Shown piece by piece: positions 12 to 12,665 of a DNA stretch of 13,126 nucleotides. Every line of letters begins with the position of its first letter. Within the stretch, counting starts at the first letter, position 1. Location of the stretch: positions 1-13,126 of the forward strand of contig JBKPAK010000011.1 in NCBI GenBank assembly GCA_046726415.1, given 5' to 3'. Under the pieces are notes generated by a model. It was given only the letters and a program-made list of their open reading frames with translations. It had not been told where the DNA came from and ran no database searches. A program made the translations under genes and the position numbers. This stretch comes from Candidatus Methylomirabilota bacterium (GTDB lineage: Bacteria; Methylomirabilota; Methylomirabilia; Rokubacteriales; CSP1-6).

Positions 12-1802
12 ATGACGTGTCCCCGGTGCCAAGCGGAGAATCCCGCTGGCATGAGGTTCTGCGGCCAGTGCGCTGCGTCGCTTGCCTGTGTCTGCCCGTC
101 GTGCGGGGCAGCCAATCCTCCCGAGAACAAGTTCTGCGGCCAATGCGCAGCACCGCTCGACAAGCCGGCTCAGCCGCGCTTCGCCGCGCCCGAGTCCTAC
201 ACCCCCAAGCACCTGGCCGAGAAGATCCTCACCTCTAAGGCCGCCCTGGAGGGCGAGCGGAAGCAGGTGACGGTGCTCTTCGCCGACCTGAAGGGCTCCA
301 TGGAGCTGCTCGCTGACCGAGACCCCGAAGAGGCGCGCAAGATCCTCGACCCGGTGCTCGAGCGGACGATGGAAGCGGTCCACCGCTTCGAGGGCACGGT
401 CAACCAAGTGATGGGCGATGGCATCATGGCCCTCTTTGGGGCGCCGCTGGCTCACGAGGACCACGCCGTGCGGGCCTGTTATGCGGCGCTCCGGATGCAG
501 GAGAGCGTGAAGACATACGCGGACGAGGTGCGACGCTCTCACGCCGCCGTGGTCAAGATTCGCGTCGGGCTGAACTCGGGAGAGGTCGTCGTCCGTGCCA
601 TCGGCTCGGACCTCCGTATGGACTACACCGCCGTCGGCCAGACGACGCACCTGGCCGCCCGCATGGAGCAGCTCGCCGATCCCGGTGCGATCGTGATCAC
701 GCCCGAGACGCTAGCCCTGGCGGAGGGCTATGTCGCGGTGAAGTCGCTGGGCCCCGTGTCGGTCAAGGGGCTCGCCGAGCCCGTAGAGGTCTATGAGGTG
801 ACGGGCCCCGGCACGGCGCGCACCCGCCTGCAGGCCGGCGCCCCTCGGGGGCTGACGCGGTTCGTCGGACGTGACACCGAGCTAGAGCAGCTCCGCCGCG
901 CCCAACAGCTCGCCAGTGATGGTCGCGGTCAGGTGGCGACGGTCGTTGGAGAGGCCGGGGTCGGCAAGTCGCGCCTCCTTCACGAGCTCTCCTCCTCGCA
1001 CCGCCTGCAGGGCTGGCTCGTGCTCGAAAGCGCTGCGGTCTCGTATGGCACGGCGACGAGTTACCTGCCGGTGATCGATCTCCTCAAGAGCTACTTCAAG
1101 ATCCAGGACCGGGATGACCTTCGCCAGGTCCGCGAGAAGGTCACGGGCAAGCTGCTCATCCTGGACGAAGCCCTGAAGGCGACGCTGCCGGCATTGCTGG
1201 CTCTGCTCGACGTGCCCGTGGACGATGCTGGGTGGCAGAGGCTCGACCCGGCCCAGCGTCGCCAGCAGACGCTCGACGCCGTGCGGCGGTTGCTGCTGCG
1301 GGAAGCGCGCGAGCAACCCCTTCTCCTTATCTTCGAAGATCTGCACTGGATCGACGGCGAGACTCAGTCGCTGCTCGACGGCCTGGTCGACAGCCTGGGC
1401 TCGGCGCGCCTGCTGCTGCTCATGAACTACCGTCCCGTGTACCAGCACCCCTGGGGCAGTAAGACGGCCTACAGTCAGATGCGGCTGGACGCGCTCCCAG
1501 CCGAGAGCGCCGCGGAGCTACTGGAGGCGCTGCTGGGCGACGATCCCGGGCTGGCGCCGCTCAAGCAGCTGCTCGTCAAGCGCTGGAACCCGTTCTTCCT
1601 GGAGGAGACCGTCCGGACGCTGGTGGAGACCAAGGCGCTGGCTGGGGAGCGCGGCCGATATCGGCTTACCCAACCGGTGCAGGCGATCCAGGTCCCGCCC
1701 ACGGTCGAGGTGATGCTGGCGGCGCGCATCGACCGGCTCGCTTCGGAGGACAAGCGCCTCCTCCAGGTGCCTCCGTCGTCGGCAAGGACGTGCCTCAAAT
1801 GA
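12..1802 (+). pseudogene. Double zinc ribbon + class III adenylate/guanylate cyclase + STAND/AAA ATPase protein, C-terminally truncated
   Basis: Four CxxC pairs at the N-terminus; cyclase motifs VLFADLKGS, MGDGIMALFG, VRVGLNSGEV-like KIRVGLNSGEV and GQTTHLAARME; Walker A GEAGVGKS; Walker B LLLIFEDLHW. At about 1770 a missing G (gtg-cc-tcc instead of gtg-gcc-tcc) shifts the family motif LQVASVVGKDVP out of frame, and homology stops at about 1795. The usual winged-helix/TPR half is absent. Confidence 0.9.
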
Positions 1803-1814
1803 AAAGGAGTGAAC

Positions 1815-2738
1815 ATGGCACCCGAACTGGTAGGTACAAGTGGGGATGGCATTGCAGTGTCTGGCGAAAGCCAGAGAGGTGAAGGTGTGCGTGGCGTAAG
1901 CCTTGAGGCCGCCGGCGTCGTGGGTAAGGGGAGCCCGGCAGGGCAATTCGACGGTAACGTGGATGTGGATGGCACCGTGAATACCACCCATCTGAGCGCA
2001 CAGGGCAACATTAGTGCTCTCGGCAATGTGAACGCCGGGGATACCGTCAGTACCACGCGTGTGGAGCTCTCGGGAACGAGACATATATCGGAGCCGGGCG
2101 GCGGCACCGGTGCGCAGTTGGTCCGGGCAGTGCTCAAGTGCCAAGCCGACGCCACCGTCAATGTTACGCATCTGAGAGCAGAAGGGAACGTTAGTGCTCT
2201 CGGCAATGTGAACGCCGGGGACACCGTGAATACCACCCATGTGAGCGCACAGGGCAACGTTAGCGCTCTCGGGAATGTGAACGCGTTCAACATGAACGTC
2301 ACTGGGGACATCAGACTAGAGAATTCGGACTGCGCTGAGGAGTTCGATGTGGATACGATCTGCGCTCAGGACGTTGCCCCTGGAACGGTCGTGGTCTTCG
2401 GCGACGAAGGTTGTCTCCGCCACAGCAGGTCCGCCTATGACAAGCGCGTTGCCGGTGTCGTGTCCGGTGGCGGGAACTACAAGCCTGGCATTATTCTTGA
2501 TCAGAGAATCTCCAAATCGGCTCGAATGCCTGTCGCCTTGCTAGGCAAGGTGTTTTGTAATGTGGACGCCACTTATGGGTCAGTTGAGGTTGGGGATCTA
2601 CTCACAACGTCCGACACCCCGGGCCACGCGATGAAGGCGAGCGATTCCACACGAGCGTTCGGTGCGGTCATCGGCAAAGCATTGCGACCGCTTCGTGATG
2701 GAAAAGCTCTGATTCCGATTCTGGTCGCACTGCAATGA
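1815..2738 (+). CDS. Fibre/beta-helix-like repeat protein with C-terminal intramolecular chaperone (peptidase G2-like) domain
   Basis: RBS AGGAG at 1805-1809 before ATG 1815. GVxGxS-type N-terminal repeats and GNVSALGNVNA repeats, then S-DCAEEF followed by PGTVVV, VAGVVS, PVALLGKV, GDLLTTS, PGHAMKA and IGKAL motifs typical of tail-appendage autochaperone C-termini. No signal peptide apparent. Confidence 0.72.
   Translation: MAPELVGTSGDGIAVSGESQRGEGVRGVSLEAAGVVGKGSPAGQFDGNVDVDGTVNTTHLSAQGNISALGNVNAGDTVSTTRVELSGTRHISEPGGGTGAQLVRAVLKCQADATVNVTHLRAEGNVSALGNVNAGDTVNTTHVSAQGNVSALGNVNAFNMNVTGDIRLENSDCAEEFDVDTICAQDVAPGTVVVFGDEGCLRHSRSAYDKRVAGVVSGGGNYKPGIILDQRISKSARMPVALLGKVFCNVDATYGSVEVGDLLTTSDTPGHAMKASDSTRAFGAVIGKALRPLRDGKALIPILVALQ
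1973..2284 (+). repeat. Three near-identical 69-nt (23-aa) intragenic repeats
   Basis: Units start at 1973, 2153 and 2222 (caccgt.aat...ac.cat.tgag.gca.a.gg.aac.ttag.gctctcgg.aatgtgaacgc), encoding TVNxTHxxAxGNxSALGNVNA. Confidence 0.9.
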
Positions 2739-2750
2739 CGAAAGAACCGC

Positions 2751-2861
2751 CTTCTTGTGCACGTCGATGCCAACATAGTCCATGGCAGGCCCCTCCTCGT
2801 GCGCCCGTGAGCATGTGGTCTCAGTTCGCAGTATGCCACCAAGTCGAGGTGAGGCAGCCGA
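2751..2861 (-). mobile_element. IS110-family remnant: non-coding end plus first 11 codons of the recombinase
   Basis: Minus-strand RBS GAGGAGG (2792-2798) and ATG at 2783 encoding MDYVGIDVHKK, the typical DEDD/RuvC-like N-terminus of IS110 recombinases. Similarity ends at about 2751. Left boundary inferred from where paralogue homology resumes (2862). Confidence 0.65.
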
Positions 2862-2944
2862 CTGAGAGCCTTCGGGACCTTGATCGGGAAGGTTCAGTGA
2901 CCGCTGGCCAGAGCGTGCTTCCCGTCCTGGTTGCGCTCCAACGA
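2862..2944 (+). pseudogene. 3' remnant of a second fibre/autochaperone paralogue
   Basis: Reads LRAFGTLIGK (from 2862) then, in another frame, VTAGQSVLPVLVALQ followed by CGA where the paralogue has TGA. Compare the end of 1815-2738: TRAFGAVIGKALRPLRDGKALIPILVALQ*. Confidence 0.75.
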
Positions 2945-2984
2945 ACGGCTTCAGACTCATGAAGAGAGGAAGGAGGCAGTCACC

Positions 2985-4076
2985 GTGGCGCTCGGAGACG
3001 GAATCCGCCGCAACATCGCTCACGTCAGCCCGGAAGAGCGCGCGATGCTTCGCGACGCGTTCACAGGACTGACTCAACACACCTTTGGCGGCAACCGCGA
3101 GGACAACCCTCCAGGCGGGGTGAACTGGTGGTTCAAACAGGATGAGATCCACAAAGTCACGCACGTCCACCACGGACCGGAGTTCCTCCCCTGGCATCGC
3201 GAGATCGTGAACCGGCTGGAGGAGATGCTTCGCACCATCCAACCGTTGGTCTCCCTCCACTACTGGAACTGGACGCAGGATCCGCGCGCGATCCCCAATG
3301 CGAACTTAGGCGGAGGGTGGACCGGGACGCTGAACCTCTTCAAATCCGACTTCATGGGCTATGGCGGAAAGGATCCCGACTAGATCGGCGAGCCGTGGAA
3401 GGGCGCCGGCTACTACAAGCCGGACGCCCCACACGGCGGCCGCGAGTCGACCGGCAATCCCGCCGACCCACCACTTACGGTGACCCGCTTCATCAACGAT
3501 CTGATTGGTCCGGCCTCCGCGAGAGACGATGCGAACATCGTCGGCGCTGCTGACTACGCGACGATGAGGAGGCTGATGGAAGGCATCCACGACAGGATGC
3601 ACGGCTTCGTGGTCATGGGCGGCACTCACATCTCTTTCCGCGATCCGTTCGTGTTCCTTCTGCATTCCAACGTCGACCGCCTCTTCGCGCTCTGGCAGAC
3701 CGATCCCGAGCATCCGGAACGGCTCGAGCCTGCTACCGTTTACGGCACCGAGGGAAGCAACGCGGCGCTCAACAGCAATGTCGAGCCGTGGTCGACCGGG
3801 CACTCGATCGACACGTTCGGCGAGGAGCACTTCATCAGACCATGGTACGCGCCGGAGAAGGAAGGCGTCCCGCATAAGTATAAGGACCCGTCGATCGCCC
3901 TCCCACCAAGATACGACACGTCGCCGGGACTGCCGTTGAGTGTACGGATAATAGCCGAGCAGTGTGGGATATCCCTGCCTCTGTCGCTGCGACAACACTT
4001 CTTTGGGTTCGCCGACAATCAGACGAACTCGTTGAGGATACAATTGTTGTGGATGCAACAACACTGTGGGCCGTGA
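2985..4076 (+). pseudogene. Tyrosinase-family (type-3 di-copper) protein with one in-frame TAG at 3381-3383
   Basis: RBS AGGAGG at 2971-2976 and GTG at 2985. CuA motif IHKVTHVHHGPEFLPWHRE and CuB motif HDRMHGFV...RDPFVFLLHSNVDRLFALWQ. ORFs 2931-3383 and 3480-4076 are in the same frame and the intervening codons are open (IGEPWKGAGYYKPD...). Confidence 0.88.
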
Positions 4077-4404
4077 AGTTCGTCGCCGCCACGGCGACCC
4101 TTGTCCGACCGGAAGATCACCGCCAACGTGAAGGGCCAGAGTGACGGGCTCCGGGACGCCTATGGTCGGGCCGCCGCTCTTCCTGTTCGACTCGCGAACC
4201 GTGGTGGAGCGTGCCCATGCGGAGTGGTTTCACGGACAGCAGCGCGTGCTGGTCGAGGTGCGCGCTGTCGTGGGAACGATGCCTCCTGTCCAGCCGAACC
4301 GTCACCATCGGGCTCATGGACCTAAGTTAGTCTTTCTTTGCCCCCTCGTTAGACTCCCTGAAGTACCTGTCTCACTCACTGGCGGAGATGGCGCCCGCGC
4401 AGGC

Positions 4405-4612
4405 CCGCGGATCGAACCGATAAGCCACTCGGCAGAAGGATTCTGCCAGGGGCTGTGCGGCGCCGTTAGGATTTCGTCGATCCACATGCCCTTCACTCGG
4501 TGCCCGAAATTGCTGGCCGTAGACACGATCACGGTCGCGCACGAGATAGGACGGCGCGGAGTCGTCCGGGAAGGTATCCACGATCTGCTGAGCAGTCCAG
4601 TCGGCGGCCGGC
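4405..4612 (-). mobile_element. Integrase-core (rve) transposase internal fragment, frameshifted
   Basis: PAADWTAQQIVDTFPDDSAPSYLVRDRDRVYGQQF then, after a frameshift near 4505, HRVKGMWIDEILTAPHSPWQNPSAEWLIGSIR, matching the DRD...PxSPWQNxxAER core of rve DDE transposases. Confidence 0.85.
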
Positions 4613-4810
4613 TCGGGCACGACGGGACTCGTCATGCCTTCAAGCTGTTCCAAGTCGCGGAAGGCCACTGGCGGTCTCTCGACGCCGCCGAGCTCGTTCC
4701 GCTCGTCCGCGCCGGCGTGGGTTTCGAGGATGGAGTGCAGCGAGCCGCAGAAGAAGCGGAAGAAGACTGTGGCTTGATCTCACTCAATCCACAACTCTCG
4801 ACAAGACCTC
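4610..4810 (+). mobile_element. IS256-family transposase C-terminal fragment with probable right terminal repeat
   Basis: GSGTTGLVM(A)FKLFQVAEGHWRSLDAAELVPLVRAGVGFEDG (one G missing near 4637) resembles IS256 C-termini. It is followed by atccacaactctcgacaagacctc (to 4810), which resembles IS256-type ends. Confidence 0.7.
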
Positions 4811-4937
4811 TCAGCGACTTGGCGCCTGGCAGTGCAACGCTGGGCGGCGCTGACGGCGAGAGCGTGAGCGTCCAGCTGTCCCCAGACTCGCTGGCTTGCC
4901 CATCGAAAGAGGAATCGTGGAAGAGTCCTCGCCAACA

Positions 4938-7217
4938 ATGACACCTAGCACGACGACACCAGCGGCTGATCCCAAAGCGCTACTCGTGGCGGCCAACACC
5001 GCCTCGGAGAAGGTCGCCGCCCTGCATATCGTGTTTCTCGCGATCTGCGCTTATGTCCTGGTCATCGTTTTCGGCACCACCGACGTGGATCTTCTGATCG
5101 GCAAGGGCGTTAAGCTGCCGGTCGTGGATGTGGAAGTTCCCATCGTCGGCTTTTACGCGATGGCGCCGTATCTCCTGGTGCTCGTCCATTTCAATCTGCT
5201 CCTGTCGCTGCAGCTGCTCTCACGCAAGCTCTATGCGTTCGATGACGCCGCCCAGAGAAACGAGGGTAGCGGCGGATTGCACCACCAACTCGCCATTTTC
5301 CCCTACAACCAATATCTGATCGGCCAGCCAAGCCGGCTGGTCCGCCGTTTCCTCGCACTCGTCGTAACCATCACCATGCTGTTATTGCCGCTGGCTGCCC
5401 TGCTTATGTTGCAAGCTCGGTTCCTCGCTTACCAAAGTGAAGCCGTCACCTGGGCGCAACGGCTGGCCGTATGGCTCGATGTCGGTCTGGTTGCCATCTT
5501 GTGGCCGGTGATTATGGACCGACGCGATAGCTGGAGCGCGTATATGGGAGCCGGCTGGCGACACGCGCGGCTTCACTGGTTACGCTGGCTGTGGGGATCT
5601 GCAGGGTTGCTGATCGCGGTGTTCTTGCTTGAGAGGGAGGTCAGCCAGCCCGGGTCTTCATCGCATCCACCGCTCGTGCCCGAGACCCAGGCCTATCTGA
5701 CGTGGTTGACCGAGCCGTGGTCGTTCAAGCTGCTCATTGCCTGGTTGCTGTTGATTCTCTTCGCCCGCCCGTCCCGGCGTTGTGCGCGCTGGTTGAGCCG
5801 ACGGCGTTATTTTTCATCACCGGGAGGCGGAGCCCCCTTTATTTTGGGCGCACCCGGACTGCTAGCGATTCTTCTATTGGGTTTGCCGCTGCCCCTGATG
5901 CTTGTTACCGACGGCGAGAAGCTCGACCGGCCGGCCGGCGGCGCTTAGCACACGAATCTTGGCTTCACTGCGTCACCTGAACCTCCGTGAACGAGTGTTA
6001 CATGGCCAGGGCTCCCCAACCCGAGACCCTCGCCGACCTGCGCGGCAGCGATCCGGCCAGGATGGAAGCCGCGCTCCGATCGGTCCAGCGCGTCGAATTG
6101 CGGAACCGCAGCCTTCGCCGAGCGGATCTTTCGAACGCACTGTTGCCCAAAGCAGACTTGCGTGGCGCGCAGTTGCAGGATGCATATGTCATAGACGCGC
6201 AGTTGCACGGCGTGGATCTGAAAGGTGCGCAGTTACAGGGCACGGTTTTTGCCGGAACAACGTTGCACGGGGCAAACCTGTCGGAATTGCAACTGCAGCG
6301 CACGGTATTCGGGGAAGTCTCGTTGGAGAGGGCAAATCTAGAACGCGCGCAGATGCAGGGCACGGTTTTGAATGAAGTGCGGTTGCAGGGCGCGAACTTG
6401 TCAGGAGCGCACTTGCAGGGCACGGATCTGTCCGCGTCAGATTTGCGGGGAGCGGATTTGACAGAGGCACAGTTGCAGGGCGCGACTTTCTCACCGTGGT
6501 TGGACGGCGCGAATTTGTCGGGAGCTCAGTTGCAGGCGGCGGATCTATCACGGGCGCGGCTGCAGGGAGCGAATTTGAGCGCTGCGCGGCTGCAGGGCGC
6601 GGATCTGTCAGGGGCGCACTTGCAGGGCACGGAATTGTCGACGACAAATGTGCGAGGCGCAAACCTGCGGGGCGCGGTGCTCTACACGGATGCGGTGTTT
6701 CATGAACCGTTTGATGCGCGCGGCTTGAAATGGCGACCGCTCAGCGTAGAGGAAATCCAGTCGCTGCGCGAGAGTCAGGCGCGACTGACGTGGTCACGCA
6801 AAGAAGATCAGATTCGGTACGACGCGGCACTTGAAAAAAGCGGCTGCGCCTGGCGTGAAGCTGCCGCAAATTCAGTCGTGCCTGCAGGATAGCGAAACGC
6901 AGGTGACGTGCTATAACCAGCTGCCGCTCGAGCAATTCCGAGCATTGCTGCTGCAGGAACTGGAAAGACTGGCATGTGACTCACCCGACACCGCACGCGG
7001 GTTTGTCAAACGCCTCAAACGCCTCAAACCGATGGAAGGACTTGCGTTACGTTTGCAGAACAGGGTCAAAACGGCTGACGACAATTCGTGCCGGGGTCTG
7101 GCCAAGCTGTCTGCGGAAGACAAAGCAGATCTATCGGCATCCGCATCGAAAGACGTAGCACCGCCCGACGGACCTGCGAAGGGGAGTCCCCCAACCGCCG
7201 ATGCTCCAGGGCGCTAA
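4938..7217 (+). pseudogene. Multi-pass membrane protein with pentapeptide-repeat domain, split by three frameshifts
   Basis: Hydrophobic N-terminal region (GTTDVDLL...KLPVVDVEVPIVGFYAMAP...HFNLLL) continues through ALSTRILASLRHLNLRERVL (frame of ORF 5902), MARAPQPE and A(D/N)LxGAxLQG repeats (ORF 5987), then AAAPGVKLP...GR* (ORF 6831). Shifts at about 5935-5945, 6001 and 6834-6839 (A6 run). Start chosen at ATG 4938. Confidence 0.8.
6120..6680 (+). repeat. Pentapeptide repeat array (30-nt decapeptide period)
   Basis: Recurrent gcgcagttgcaggg / gcggatctg units encoding ADLRGAQLQ, ANLSGAHLQG, ADLSRARLQG etc. Confidence 0.9.
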
Positions 7218-7999: not shown

Positions 8000-8500
8000 T
8001 CACCCCGCACACCCATCAGTTCGCCGTTTCGCGTATCGGAGTCGGAAAGCCTCCACTGGGTCTATCGAGGGCGCCGGATCGGGGACCACCTCGACCTTGC
8101 CGCGCGAACTTGGCGTTAGTCCGAACTCGCGCAGCATGCTCGCGGCCCGGCGCCAGGCATCCGCCAGGAGCACGACCTCCGGCCGCTGCCTGACCAGCGT
8201 CGAGCCTTGCGGCGTCGTCGTCTCGTACGTCGCGCCCTGCCCCCGTAGCACGCCGTCGAGCCGCCAGCATTCGGCCAGCGCGAGCGCACCCAGCTCGAGG
8301 GCGAGTCCGTCGGCGGCCGAGAGAACACGCATCGGCGCGAGGCGCCGAGCAAGACGGTCGTACTCCCGGCGAACGTCGGGCGGCAACGTACGGGACGGCC
8401 GCGGCGTCCCTGCCTTCGGCTGAGGTTCACGGAGATTGAGGCGATCAGCGCGAAGCGTCCCGCGAAGGGCCTTAACGTGTGACGGGACCCTAGCCGGCAT
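8000..8500 (-). CDS. terS: Phage terminase small subunit, P27 family
   Basis: N-terminal KALRGTLRADR, central VLSAADGLAL, RQRPEV and hallmark REFGLTPSSRGKV; RBS GGAGG about 9 nt upstream of the ATG. Confidence 0.88.
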   Translation of the reverse strand: MPARVPSHVKALRGTLRADRLNLREPQPKAGTPRPSRTLPPDVRREYDRLARRLAPMRVLSAADGLALELGALALAECWRLDGVLRGQGATYETTTPQGSTLVRQRPEVVLLADAWRRAASMLREFGLTPSSRGKVEVVPDPAPSIDPVEAFRLRYAKRRTDGCAG

Positions 8501-8700
8501 CAGTCATGACCTCCCACAAAAGGGGGATCGAGGTTGACAGGGGCGCATCAACCGGGTCAAGCCAGTACTACCAGTGGGGGTGTCAGGTTTCTTACCCCCG
8601 CCTCCCCTGGGCGGCGAGAAACAGCGGCACGTGCGTCGATGTCGCTCCACGCGTTCACGCGTTGGGGGGTCAGTAATCGCGCGCGTCACAGGCAGAGGCG

Positions 8701-9606
8701 TCAGGGCTGTCCGCCGTTGGCGAGTTGCTCGAGCACCATCGTCGCGTAGTAGCTCGGGGACTTCCCCCGCACACGAAACGACGCCTGGTCGAACAGGAAG
8801 AGCGCCTCGGCGTCGAAGTGCTCCGCCGGGGCGCCATTGCCCGCGCGCACGGCCAGGGCACTCGCGATCCGGCTAAGGGCTTTGAGAGTCTCGGCCAGGA
8901 CGTGCGGGGGCAGTCGCCTCCCCTCAAGGGAGAGGTGTCCTGGGGTTCGTCCCGGGGGTCCGTCCGAATCGAGAGAGAGAGAAAATGTCTTGTGGTCGAC
9001 TTGGCTGGCCCCGGCGGAGCGATTTTCCGCCACGGTGCGTCTCCGATCTCCGGATTTCTCTCTCTCTCCGATCTCCGATCTCCGTTCTCCGGTCTCCGTC
9101 TCCGATCTCCGTTCTCCGGTTGGTCCCCGTAGGCCTACCTGGGGGCCAGGGGTGGGGGCCTCTATCGGGGCCTCAGCAAGTAAGTCTGCATAGTGTCTAC
9201 GGAACCGACGTACGACTCTCGATGACTTCGGGAGTTTCGATAGCTCGTACTTGATGCCTTTCAGGCTGTCTCCCGAGAGCTTCGCGGGGTCATCACGCAG
9301 GCGATGGCGGATCCAGATCACGTTTTCATCGAAGTCGATGAACGCATCGGCGGCTTTGGGCTTCCTGCTGAGCGCTTCCAAGTGGCCCAAGACATCCTCC
9401 CGGGTAATCGGCTGCCGGCCGGTCTGGAAGTCCTGGAGGATGCAGTCAATGCTCCGCAGGAAGATGCCGGCCTGGTTCGAGAGACGGCCGGTGGAGAGGC
9501 AGAGGAGCAAGCGCGACTCCTCAGGCTCGAGCGTCTTGACGCCAGAGTCTAACCACCAGAGCGAGCGGACATAGCCGTAGCGCCCCTCGGAACGGTTTCG
9601 GCTCAT
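8701..9606 (-). CDS. Phage-type replication initiator / replisome-organiser-like protein
   Basis: ATG 9606 overlaps the upstream stop (ATGA). N-terminus RYGYVRSLWWLD...LEPEESRLLLCLSTGRLSNQAGIF...FIDFDENVIWIRH resembles winged-helix phage Rep N-domains, followed by a low-complexity linker with DNA repeats. Confidence 0.65.
   Translation of the reverse strand: MSRNRSEGRYGYVRSLWWLDSGVKTLEPEESRLLLCLSTGRLSNQAGIFLRSIDCILQDFQTGRQPITREDVLGHLEALSRKPKAADAFIDFDENVIWIRHRLRDDPAKLSGDSLKGIKYELSKLPKSSRVVRRFRRHYADLLAEAPIEAPTPGPQVGLRGPTGERRSETETGERRSEIGEREKSGDRRRTVAENRSAGASQVDHKTFSLSLDSDGPPGRTPGHLSLEGRRLPPHVLAETLKALSRIASALAVRAGNGAPAEHFDAEALFLFDQASFRVRGKSPSYYATMVLEQLANGGQP
9040..9174. repeat. Iteron-like repeat cluster inside the rep gene (putative origin)
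   Basis: Ten TCTCCG units in 9040-9118, including an exact 22-bp repeat at 9072-9093 and 9099-9120; GGGGCCTC at 9155-9162 and 9167-9174. Confidence 0.75.
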
Positions 9607-9742
9607 GCTGGGCCTTCCCTGAAGCCGCACCGCGGACAGCGCGGGCGCAGCTCGGGGGTCACGATCCGCGCGCGCCGCACCGCAGACACTCCCACCGGGT
9701 CGGCGGTGACCACTCAAAAGTGCGATCGATCGTCTCGCTCAC
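9603..9742 (-). pseudogene. Small zinc-ribbon protein (about 45 aa), frameshifted
   Basis: GTG 9742 gives MSETIDRTFEWSPPTRWECLRCGA; removing one CG from the (CG)n run near 9667-9675 continues RIVTPELRPRCPRCGFREGPA*, whose TGA overlaps the rep ATG. Confidence 0.6.
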
Positions 9743-9926
9743 CGGCGCGCCTCGCGTCCGGACTCTGCTCGTGGGCTCCCCCTTTCGCACCGTTGAAGAC
9801 GGCGTTGGTCGCGCGGGCGCGTGCGGACTGATCCTCGGAGGTACTCCGGCGCTTTCGTTCCTCAATCCACGCGAGCAAATCAGGGTGCGAGGGCTTCGTC
9901 CATCTCGCGCGCGTACTCGTCGCGAT

Positions 9927-10205
9927 TCACGACGCGTCGCCATTCCGCGCGCGGCCGTTCTCGAGGGCCTGCGCGAGCGTCACGCCAGGGAGTCGCCGGA
10001 AGTATTCGAGCAGCTCGGATCGCAGCAGGACGACCCGCCCGCCGAGGCGGCGATAGGGCAACAGGCCACGAGCGATCTGCGAGCGCGTGGCCTTCTCGGT
10101 CTCACCGATCAGTTCGGCTCCGGCGGCGACATCGAGCACCTCGCCGTCGAGCCGGCGCCTTCCGCTCTTCATGCCTTTGCGCTTCCGCGGCGGCGTGGGG
10201 TGCAT
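9927..10205 (-). CDS. Excisionase/AlpA-like helix-turn-helix DNA-binding protein
   Basis: VLDVAAGAELIGETEKATRSQIARGLLPYRRLGGRVVLLRSEL fits the HTH_17/Xis pattern. Start overlaps the upstream stop (TGATG); alternative start at 10172. Confidence 0.78.
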   Translation of the reverse strand: MHPTPPRKRKGMKSGRRRLDGEVLDVAAGAELIGETEKATRSQIARGLLPYRRLGGRVVLLRSELLEYFRRLPGVTLAQALENGRARNGDAS

Positions 10206-10414
10206 CAGCGGGGCGGCCTCTCACGCGGCGGCATGGCGCGCAGCGCTTCCGCTACGCGCGTCGCCACCGCCGGCCGCATTGGGAGGCGCTCGGACAACAT
10301 CGCGCCCAACCGGCCAGGGTGGATCTGGACGACGGGCGCCAGCTCGTAGACGCGGATTTGTCGCCGCGCTAACTCCGCTCGCAACTCCCCGGCGGTGATC
10401 GGCTCGCCTTCCAT
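10205..10414 (-). CDS. Small Cro/XRE-like HTH protein
   Basis: ELRAELARRQIRVYELAPVVQIHPGRLGAMLSERLP resembles an XRE HTH; translationally coupled to the Xis-like gene. Alternative start at 10432. Confidence 0.68.
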   Translation of the reverse strand: MEGEPITAGELRAELARRQIRVYELAPVVQIHPGRLGAMLSERLPMRPAVATRVAEALRAMPPRERPPR

Positions 10415-10481
10415 ACGCGCACTGTCACGCATGAGCGCGCGAGACGGAACGGTGGCAAATGCAGAAACCCCGGGGGAGTTT

Positions 10482-11960: not shown

Positions 11961-12392
11961 TCAGGCCTGGTGGGGAGGCCGCCACCGCAGTCCGGGGAAC
12001 CGGGCGAAGTCCGCGTCGTTCGTGACCCACTCGCACCCGTGCTCGATCGCCACCGCCGCATGATAGGCGTCCGAGACCAGACCGGCGGTCGCCCGCGCGC
12101 GCCGGCACAGGTTGACGAAAATGTCCCAGTGTCGCGGCCCCGGCCGGACCAGGTGGCACACGGGTCGACGCCGCAACTCGGCGACGAACGCGAGCGCCTC
12201 GTCCAGGGTCGATGGACGAACGAGGATCCTCGGATTCGTGACGACGCGCATGAATCCCTGCAGCACCAGCTCCGAGAGCGCGAACGGCTCATCGCCGGCG
12301 GCCAGCGCGGTCAACCACTCCGCATGCTCGACGTGCTCCGCGGTGTCCTCGCGATGCGCGTAGACCAGGACATTCACGTCGGGCATCAACAT
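11961..12392 (-). CDS. vapC: VapC-family PIN-domain toxin (type II TA)
   Basis: PDVNVLVYA, ELVLQGFMRVVTNPRI, LVSDAYHAAVAIEHG and VTNDADFARFPGLRW motifs of Mycobacterium-like PIN toxins. Confidence 0.93.
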   Translation of the reverse strand: MLMPDVNVLVYAHREDTAEHVEHAEWLTALAAGDEPFALSELVLQGFMRVVTNPRILVRPSTLDEALAFVAELRRRPVCHLVRPGPRHWDIFVNLCRRARATAGLVSDAYHAAVAIEHGCEWVTNDADFARFPGLRWRPPHQA

Positions 12393-12404
12393 GGGCAGGG
12401 CGGG

Positions 12405-12665
12405 TCAGCGCCGGCGGCGCTTCCAGCGCGCGAGGTCTTCGGTCTCCTCGAGGGTCCTCAGCCTCGTCACGTCGACACCCGGTCGTAGCCCTCCACCTTT
12501 CACGGTGATGAGCCGGAAGGGGACCGCCTTGGACGGCGCCTCGCGCCTCGTGAGCTGAGCGCGTAGCGCCTCGACAATGACGGCGCTGAACGACTTACCT
12601 TCGGCCCTCGCGCGCCGCTTGAGATCGGCAGCCAGGCCGTCGTCGAGCGTGATCGTCGTCCGCAC
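12405..12665 (-). CDS. vapB: VapB-type ribbon-helix-helix antitoxin
   Basis: MRTTITLDDGLAADLKRRARAEGKSFSAVIVEALR RHH signature, PFRLITV...GLRPGVD C-terminus, 12 nt upstream of vapC. Confidence 0.88.
   Translation of the reverse strand: MRTTITLDDGLAADLKRRARAEGKSFSAVIVEALRAQLTRREAPSKAVPFRLITVKGGGLRPGVDVTRLRTLEETEDLARWKRRRR

Follow-up and report, generated by a model that had tools for sequence, protein, structure and literature searches.

Contig JBKPAK010000011.1 of a Candidatus Methylomirabilota genome assembly (7.6 Mb in 352 contigs) was analysed over its entire length of 13,126 base pairs (bp), which is referred to as the window in the following. Three co-oriented elements follow each other in it: an intact gene for a small fibre protein (fibre A), the 3' end of a second, divergent fibre gene (fibre B) and a gene for a tyrosinase (Table 1). 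A preliminary description of this DNA had named these three elements, and all of them were recovered at their places and in the same orientation by open reading frames (ORFs), ribosome binding sites (RBSs), a family profile and BLASTP. The operon of fibre A, fibre B and tyrosinase that it inferred is not present as an intact unit, as fibre B is a pseudogene stub and the tyrosinase gene carries a stop codon in this assembly. Instead, we consider it somewhat probable that a widespread module of two parts, a fibre and an enzyme with a short tag, is preserved here in a decayed copy. This reading builds on a gene-order rule, the shared tag, a protein fold and a set of scars, all of which were observed, and from these we infer docking of the enzyme on the fibre and an extracellular role.

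Table 1. Features of the fibre and tyrosinase locus, in window coordinates (aa, amino acids; nt, nucleotides; IS, insertion sequence).
Feature	Position	Strand	Basis
Fibre A, intact, 307 aa	1815..2738 (ATG 1815, TGA 2736-2738)	+	ORF; RBS AAAGGAG 1803-1809
Fibre A C-terminal domain, residues 157-307 of 307	2283..2735	+	phi29 gp12 D4-type autochaperone, tandem beta-tulip
Fibre B remnant, last ~31 codons of divergent second fibre gene	2850..2944	+	family profile, BLASTP, DNA alignment
Tyrosinase, 363 codons	2985..4076 (GTG 2985, TGA 4074-4076)	+	PF00264 in both halves; RBS AAGGAGG 2970-2976
In-frame TAG in tyrosinase	3381..3383	+	variable position; P, S, E or L in homologues (E in 2/11)
Tyrosinase C-terminal tag, residues 315-358	3927..4058 (core 3933-3995)	+	iterated tag profile, alignment A5
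IS remnant, 5' end of multi-copy insertion sequence, 113 nt	2748..2860	-	identity to other contigs
Left flank: zinc-ribbon/guanylate-cyclase/AAA_16 gene, truncated	12..1802	+	Pfam PF00211 6e-24, PF13191 3e-25
Right flank: fragment of another multi-copy transposase gene	4314..4668	-	matches to other contigs

Composition and scars of the locus

BLASTP alone recognises only the last 12 residues of fibre B (7/12 identical, E 0.002). In a six-frame search, the family profile matches in two frames. The frame of nt 2739 aligns with profile positions 122-142 (nt ~2850-2912, with one stop inside; E 5e-4), and that of nt 2741 with positions 139-154 (nt 2894-2941; E 4.5e-3). Consequently, the remnant amounts to ~31 codons with one frameshift and one stop, and its former stop codon now reads CGA (2942-2944). 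The reduction of the second paralogue to its last codons is thereby confirmed, with a somewhat longer stretch than the ~27 codons initially proposed. The RBS of the tyrosinase lies 25 nt 3' of this former stop and its start codon 40 nt 3' of the stub; from the end of fibre A the start is separated by 246 nt that contain an IS scar.

The tyrosinase begins with (M)ALGDGIRRNIA and matches PF00264 at E 2e-10 (residues 53-102) and, in its second half, at 3.5e-8. Its relatives come from several phyla and show 59-70% identity among the best matches listed. Compared with 11 homologues, the enzyme keeps all invariant columns, including the histidines H56, H60, H62, H71, H92, H202, H206, H215 and H227, six of which we take to be the copper ligands. 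In a contig of public run X1 the in-frame TAG reads GAG (depth 3.5 of 3.5), while run X2 shows no difference at this site (depth 4.91). The TAG is a young, polymorphic nonsense allele next to which an open GAG allele exists. Recoding of the TAG was set aside since the site varies in homologues and the GAG allele is one base away. No signal peptide was noticed by eye at the tyrosinase core. A search with the tyrosinase alignment found no relative in viral contigs.

The IS remnant that separates fibre A from the fibre B remnant keeps approximately the first 12 codons of a transposase gene (nt 2783-2751) together with sequence upstream of it. It is 75-90% identical to sequences on six other contigs of the same genome and opens ORFs of ~355 aa in two of them (C27 and C326); from its N-terminal motif it presumably belongs to the IS110 family. 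The gene on the left flank is likewise broken. Its homology to full-length paralogues stops at nt 1794, as seen in comparison with the paralogue on contig C231, a 1-nt frameshift lies near 1766 and the rest of the gene is absent from the contig. The junction 1794/1795 is located 8 nt 5' of the fibre A RBS. More than 30 paralogous stretches of this gene exist in the genome, with 68-85% DNA identity across long stretches. To the right of the tyrosinase, no intact gene adjoins the cassette and transposase debris follows; 11 other contigs share 67-82% identity with its nt 4405-4610, matches at the protein level concur, and the fragment has no Pfam match.

This mosaic is real and not an assembly artefact, as contigs of public runs cross its joints. 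Contigs of run X1 cross 2561-2806 and 2795-2945 with 0 differences, and one 364-nt contig of run X4, which belongs to a different study, crosses 2720-3083 with 8 differences. Runs X2-X4 hold small shares of the window and were used solely for bridging contigs, not for habitat. Within the window, Rfam returned 0 families, a tRNA scan 0 genes, a tandem-repeat finder 0 arrays and a promoter scan 0 sites; all terminator-like sites are located inside genes, and PADLOC gave no match for 13 proteins. Further genes lie elsewhere in the window. The region 4896-6892 encodes a 350-aa protein that has no family match and appears membrane-embedded by eye, followed by a 301-aa pentapeptide-repeat protein (PF00805, 7.8e-59), and a VapBC-type toxin-antitoxin pair occupies 11964-12665 on the minus strand (PIN domain, 8.9e-18; ribbon-helix-helix/VapB antitoxin).

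The fibre family and its C-terminal domain

Fibre A is the sole copy in its genome and has no family in Pfam, NCBIfam, PHROGs or PADLOC. Its N-terminal part is glycine-rich and beta-solenoid-like, with three 23-residue repeats (nt 1968-2312) and a weak match to the FapA solenoid (6.6e-4, below cut-off). Searches recovered a family of at least 6825 proteins at E<=1e-3, out of 8000 candidates scored. The relatives have the last ~150 residues in common and differ in the glycine-rich repeat region; among the matches listed that cover the C-terminal half alone, most show ~57-69% identity. A fibre of this family is present in 5 of 61 relative genomes.

A profile of the full-length fibre alignment detected no solved chain at E<=1, and a model of the full-length monomer was poor (predicted local distance difference test score, pLDDT, 58.5) and was not used. 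The AlphaFold2 model of the C-terminal domain reached a pLDDT of 82.7 and superposes best on structures of the phi29 protein gp12: on 3suc with Z 13.3 and a root-mean-square deviation (rmsd) of 2.5 Å over 115 residues (VIA-align), and on 3gqh_A with Z 13.1 and 2.5 Å over 111 residues, where model residues 19-152 fall onto chain residues 692-854. Capsid decoration proteins rank below them (Z 11.9 and below). This ranking agrees with the published description of gp12 D4 as a pair of tandem beta-tulips acting as an autochaperone (10.1101/216911); beta-tulips are described there as trimer-forming protein-protein interaction modules. The designation as an autochaperone fibre, made initially from the letters of the DNA, is thus borne out by the superposition on gp12 D4.

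At the sequence level, the relationship is visible in parts of the family. PF11962 (Peptidase_G2) matches 28 of 61 aligned family members (best 2.9e-7) and does not match the fibre A domain itself at E<=1; a profile search of solved chains gave 3gqh_A at E 0.046, and a look-alike search of the Atlas gave a lead to PF11962 only. Residues D172, A174, E175 and F177 are invariant across 57 sequences. Moreover, S171-D172 (nt 2325-2330) aligns with the start of the fragment released from gp12, D172 corresponding to chain residue 692, the first of 3gqh. By homology to gp12, fibre A may form trimers and cleave itself.

The distribution of the domain was followed in 79 metagenome and 80 viral loci with fibre genes. 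The viral side raises the alternative that the window holds leftovers of a degraded prophage, i.e., an ordinary phage tail fibre with a tail-fibre helper or an enzyme cutting host envelopes. Indeed, at least 599 stretches were matched in viral contigs, and 461 of the sequences there count as relatives. In 79 of the 80 viral loci the domain forms the end of an ORF; these ORFs range from 154 to over 1800 aa, and several have tail-fibre PHROGs. Four close relatives of fibre A lie in predicted viral regions (L091-L094). The window itself contains a small-terminase gene 4 kb further on. The corresponding region on the minus strand (8003-10432) comprises this gene (PF05119 8.3e-16, phrog_83) as well as an excisionase-like gene of the HTH_17 type, while the window lacks a tRNA; it looks like a remnant of a prophage or satellite that is separate from the fibre cassette, and transposase debris and two unrelated genes lie in between. 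However, the genes upstream of close cellular relatives are unrelated to each other, and among the 55 scanned there was none for phage structure or secretion. With about 200-450 aa, cellular fibres are short, no phage-type N-terminal anchor was seen in them, and fibre A has, as mentioned above, no PHROG match. In addition, a profile of the enzyme tag (see below) found 0 matches in viral loci L095-L170. An origin as prophage leftovers is therefore considered very improbable.

Two genes ending in the autochaperone domain often occur on one phage contig (L095, L098, L110, L115, L122, L161, L162, L163, L167, L169). Such tandem paralogous fibres are common in phages, and none was found among the 79 cellular metagenome loci.

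Partner genes and the shared tag

The genes that follow the fibre were examined in 83 loci with close fibre relatives, 61 of which extend at least 600 nt past the fibre stop codon. In 56 of these 61 loci, a co-oriented ORF of at least 150 aa begins between -10 and +239 nt after the fibre stop, with a median of 22.5 nt and 46 cases within 75 nt. The position is conserved and its occupants are highly diverse: 55 downstream proteins of at least 180 aa fall into 18 BLAST clusters, and Pfam matched 7 of 41 downstream proteins. These are metzincins, a phosphoesterase, a GH76 enzyme and a protein whose match, to an actinoporin-like family, is weak. Later genes in such arrays encode an Exo_endo_phos enzyme, an alpha/beta hydrolase and a BNR protein. 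BLASTP detected no similarity between the partners in genomes G050 and G056 (E 2.3), and tblastn of the relatives' fibre-adjacent proteins against the window gave chance-level matches only. In G050 (contig C11, L171) and G056 (contig C75, L172), a HEAT-repeat protein was seen to adjoin the fibre and a tagged or tag-like partner. At 40 nt past the fibre B stub, the tyrosinase of the window occupies the usual position of a partner gene (less than ~75 nt).

Many fibre-adjacent proteins have in common a tag of ~40 residues with two or three short motifs of serine plus basic residues, which is located at the N- or the C-terminus and is absent from most tyrosinases. A first profile was built non-circularly from the C-terminal tails of eight other tyrosinases only. 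It matched 13 of 72 fibre-downstream proteins at E<0.01, and when it was run against 5000 ORFs of the 79 metagenome fibre loci, all six matches lay downstream of a fibre. The iterated profile, searched in 29,476 ORFs and proteins, recovered 10 tyrosinases (P0138, P0159, P0160, P0172, P0180, P0183, P0195, P0212, P0213 and P0232), six fibre-downstream proteins (one carries the tag twice in tandem) and the metalloprotease beside the fibre in G050; in 80 loci of untagged tyrosinases it had 0 matches. Among 414 proteins from fibre loci, 12 matched, of which 11 are encoded beside the fibre and one lies a gene further on. Tags also occur in second and third genes behind a fibre.

The search was also extended beyond these loci. 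A six-frame tag search (A5) of 60 related genomes returned a single match, which lies in G050 at 1.3 kb from the only fibre gene of that genome; for a single random site, the chance of such proximity is ~3.5e-4. An exhaustive search of 1.84 billion representatives yielded 52 tagged proteins at E<=1e-3. By count, ~43 of them carry the tag at residues 1-42 and one at the C-terminus, and four resemble repetitive false matches. Pfam assigned no family to most of 35 tag-bearing proteins, the rest being mainly phosphoesterases and metzincins, and the source names of 26 tag-bearing database proteins read 'hypothetical protein', with one 'phospholipase C'.

In the window, the tail of the tyrosinase scores 18.8 bits with the iterated profile, compared with a maximum of 8.6 bits in 2000 shuffles, and it aligns in A5. 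As a single phmmer query, the tail found nothing beyond itself in the loci or the genome at E<=10. Most homologues of the tyrosinase end at a PPRYDT motif, and others continue into Ricin, FG-GAP/VCBS, hemopexin, VWA, ChW or PF26607 modules. The core therefore looks like a catalytic unit that has been re-targeted through module swapping. A single clade of tagged tyrosinases was not found in a tyrosinase tree, where the tagged enzymes are represented by seven tips in six places among 95; this scatter fits repeated shuffling of C-terminal modules and provides no supporting clade.

Several results weigh against a fibre module with a tagged tyrosinase. The window enzyme does not adjoin the tagged tips of the tree, and its tail is weak in two of the three tag profiles (E 0.36 genome-wide with the first profile, and only 9.5 bits vs 7.3 with a hand-picked profile of C-terminal tags). 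Among 251 genomes of the phylum, this one alone has the tyrosinase. The IS scar shows that fibre A and the tyrosinase did not originally belong together, an export signal is not evident in either protein and secretion genes are absent nearby. Finally, homologous tyrosinases had been expected to show recurrent fibre neighbours, and no such enrichment was found: the fibre domain is present in 0 of 80 loci of homologous tyrosinases, taken from genomes and comprising 791,685 bases, although the profile does recover its positive controls. Conversely, a tyrosinase is absent from all 79 metagenome and all 80 viral loci with fibres (0/159). Taken alone, these reciprocal null counts would refute a coupling of fibre and tyrosinase. 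None of the 80 tyrosinase loci carries the tag, however, and the count of 0 of 80 therefore does not bear on tagged tyrosinases. An intact pair of fibre and tyrosinase was seen nowhere in the loci examined, which do not include the DNA around the 10 tagged tyrosinases. From the 0/79 and 0/80 counts, the tyrosinase is a rare partner of the fibre.

An alternative is chance juxtaposition, in which transposition and deletion in a junk-rich region would have assembled tyrosinase, fibre and stub, and the likeness of the tail would be fortuitous. The IS remnants on both sides, the truncated flanking gene and the stop codon in the tyrosinase fit this explanation, as do the reciprocal neighbourhood counts and the weak profile scores. 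On the other hand, the distance from stub to start codon equals the usual spacing of partner genes, 0 of 2000 shuffles reach the score of the tail, the tag is otherwise found only beside fibre genes, and the same arrangement recurs in the contig of another study. Chance juxtaposition is thus regarded as decidedly unlikely. Instead, the usual partner position and the tag make a functional coupling between the fibre family and the tyrosinase likely, as initially suggested, even though the three genes do not form an intact operon.

A proposed carrier fibre for tagged enzymes

In the module that we favour, the first part would be a small fibre whose variable, glycine-rich beta-solenoid is trimerised by the conserved C-terminal autochaperone of the gp12 D4 type. 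The second part, encoded directly downstream, would consist of one or more interchangeable tagged enzymes, such as metzincin proteases, phosphoesterases of the phospholipase C type, a GH76 glycosidase, alpha/beta hydrolases and others; in the window, it would be a tyrosinase with the tag at its C-terminal end. Most likely, the tag docks the enzyme onto the fibre, probably on the beta-tulip domain, because this is the only part of the fibre common to all versions. The fibre would thereby serve as a carrier or display scaffold for a swappable enzyme.

A related explanation accepts the module as real and assigns the tag another function, namely that of a sorting, export or processing signal or pro-peptide for other machinery, so that fibre and enzymes would merely be co-expressed. 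The extreme N-terminal position of the tag in most of the 52 representatives resembles that of export signals. Moreover, several tagged genes may trail one fibre. However, the tag is found at either end (C-terminal in the 10 tyrosinases and in P0314, N-terminal elsewhere), which is unusual for export signals, and no conserved exporter was identified among the upstream genes scanned. The sole conserved neighbour is the fibre, whose conserved part has a fold known for protein-protein contacts (10.1101/216911). Overall, a role of the tag apart from the fibre is deemed unlikely.

The scars of the locus could be explained as follows. Two cassettes would once have stood in tandem in this genome, and an IS-associated deletion would have taken everything between the fibre A stop codon and the last ~31 codons of fibre B. 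Fibre A, the IS scar, the fibre B stub and the tyrosinase would have been left behind. The tyrosinase would have been cargo of fibre B, which is lost, and fibre A would remain from the neighbouring cassette. In this genome, the locus is probably a non-functional, decayed copy.

As to function, the preliminary description had offered an oxidatively cross-linked or pigmented structure and an effector cassette. The latter fits better; no evidence was found for a cross-linked or pigmented fibre, and this idea remains unsupported. The spectrum of cargo enzymes hints at an attack on, or digestion of, foreign cell envelopes. A more far-reaching proposal, which we put forward tentatively and regard as possible but doubtful, is that a phage fibre whose beta-tulip end folds by itself has been domesticated in many bacterial phyla and serves them as a universal carrier. 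An enzyme of any kind, once it has gained the portable tag of ~40 residues at either end, could then be loaded onto the trimeric fibre and displayed or delivered together with it. Recombination within the conserved 3' part of fibre genes could swap the cargo genes between fibres.

If the module exists as outlined, a fibre family of at least 6825 members, nearly all of which are annotated as hypothetical, gains a role and a partner rule. The tag would flag hundreds of unannotated enzymes as one system and predict the travelling companions of the fibre; for tyrosinases, it would represent another way of targeting an enzyme whose core joins many C-terminal modules. The tag and the self-assembling trimeric fibre would also form a compact natural enzyme-display scaffold and a useful tool. 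The broader proposal, if true, would describe modular weapons or foraging devices of a new class, in which enzymes ride on a fibre, with the tyrosinase version as a quinone-generating oxidase on a fibre. A full-text literature search found no paper on a module of fibre and tagged enzyme, and the gene pair seemingly has not been described so far.

Several known systems resemble parts of this arrangement. The pre-neck appendage (tailspike) gp12 of phi29 (PF11962; 3suc, 3gqh) shares the C-terminal fold, which likewise terminates a beta-helical fibre, and the acidic motif with which the released fragment begins. Unlike gp12, to which its identity is ~23-24%, fibre A falls below the Pfam model and is short, cellular and without a phage anchor, and its domain is unusually conserved among cellular relatives. 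In Streptomyces, the MelC2 tyrosinase is assisted by the helper or 'caddie' protein MelC1. The MelC1-MelC2 operon likewise contains a type-3 copper tyrosinase without signal peptide directly after a partner gene, and the window enzyme gives weak matches to NCBIfam MelC2 models (9.8e-12 and 6.8e-5, far below cut-off). However, neither Pfam nor NCBIfam revealed a MelC1-like gene among the neighbouring ORFs; the upstream partner is a fibre here, to which the enzyme would be linked through its C-terminal tag.

Scaffold-plus-tag systems, such as cohesin-dockerin cellulosomes, encapsulins with their cargo-loading peptides, and MIX, RIX and WHIX, also place a short portable module on unrelated enzymes beside a structural protein. 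MIX, RIX and WHIX are marker domains of polymorphic cargo effectors of type VI secretion. No sequence relationship to any of these systems was found, and the present case differs in its phage-type fibre partner, in the presumed docking and in a tag that occurs at either end. The orphan cassettes of polymorphic toxin loci (Rhs and contact-dependent inhibition, CDI) show a comparable displaced cargo gene behind a stub, beside an intact copy of the upstream gene. Here, in contrast, carrier and cargo each have a gene of their own instead of forming one fused protein, an immunity gene is not evident and the stub arose next to an IS remnant. Finally, phage tail fibre genes can be followed directly 3' by a gene for an assembly chaperone or a tip adhesin, whose product acts on or binds the fibre (PMC10579305). 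The gene order is the same in the cassettes considered here, whereas the fibre has its own chaperone domain and the downstream genes encode enzymes of many unrelated families.

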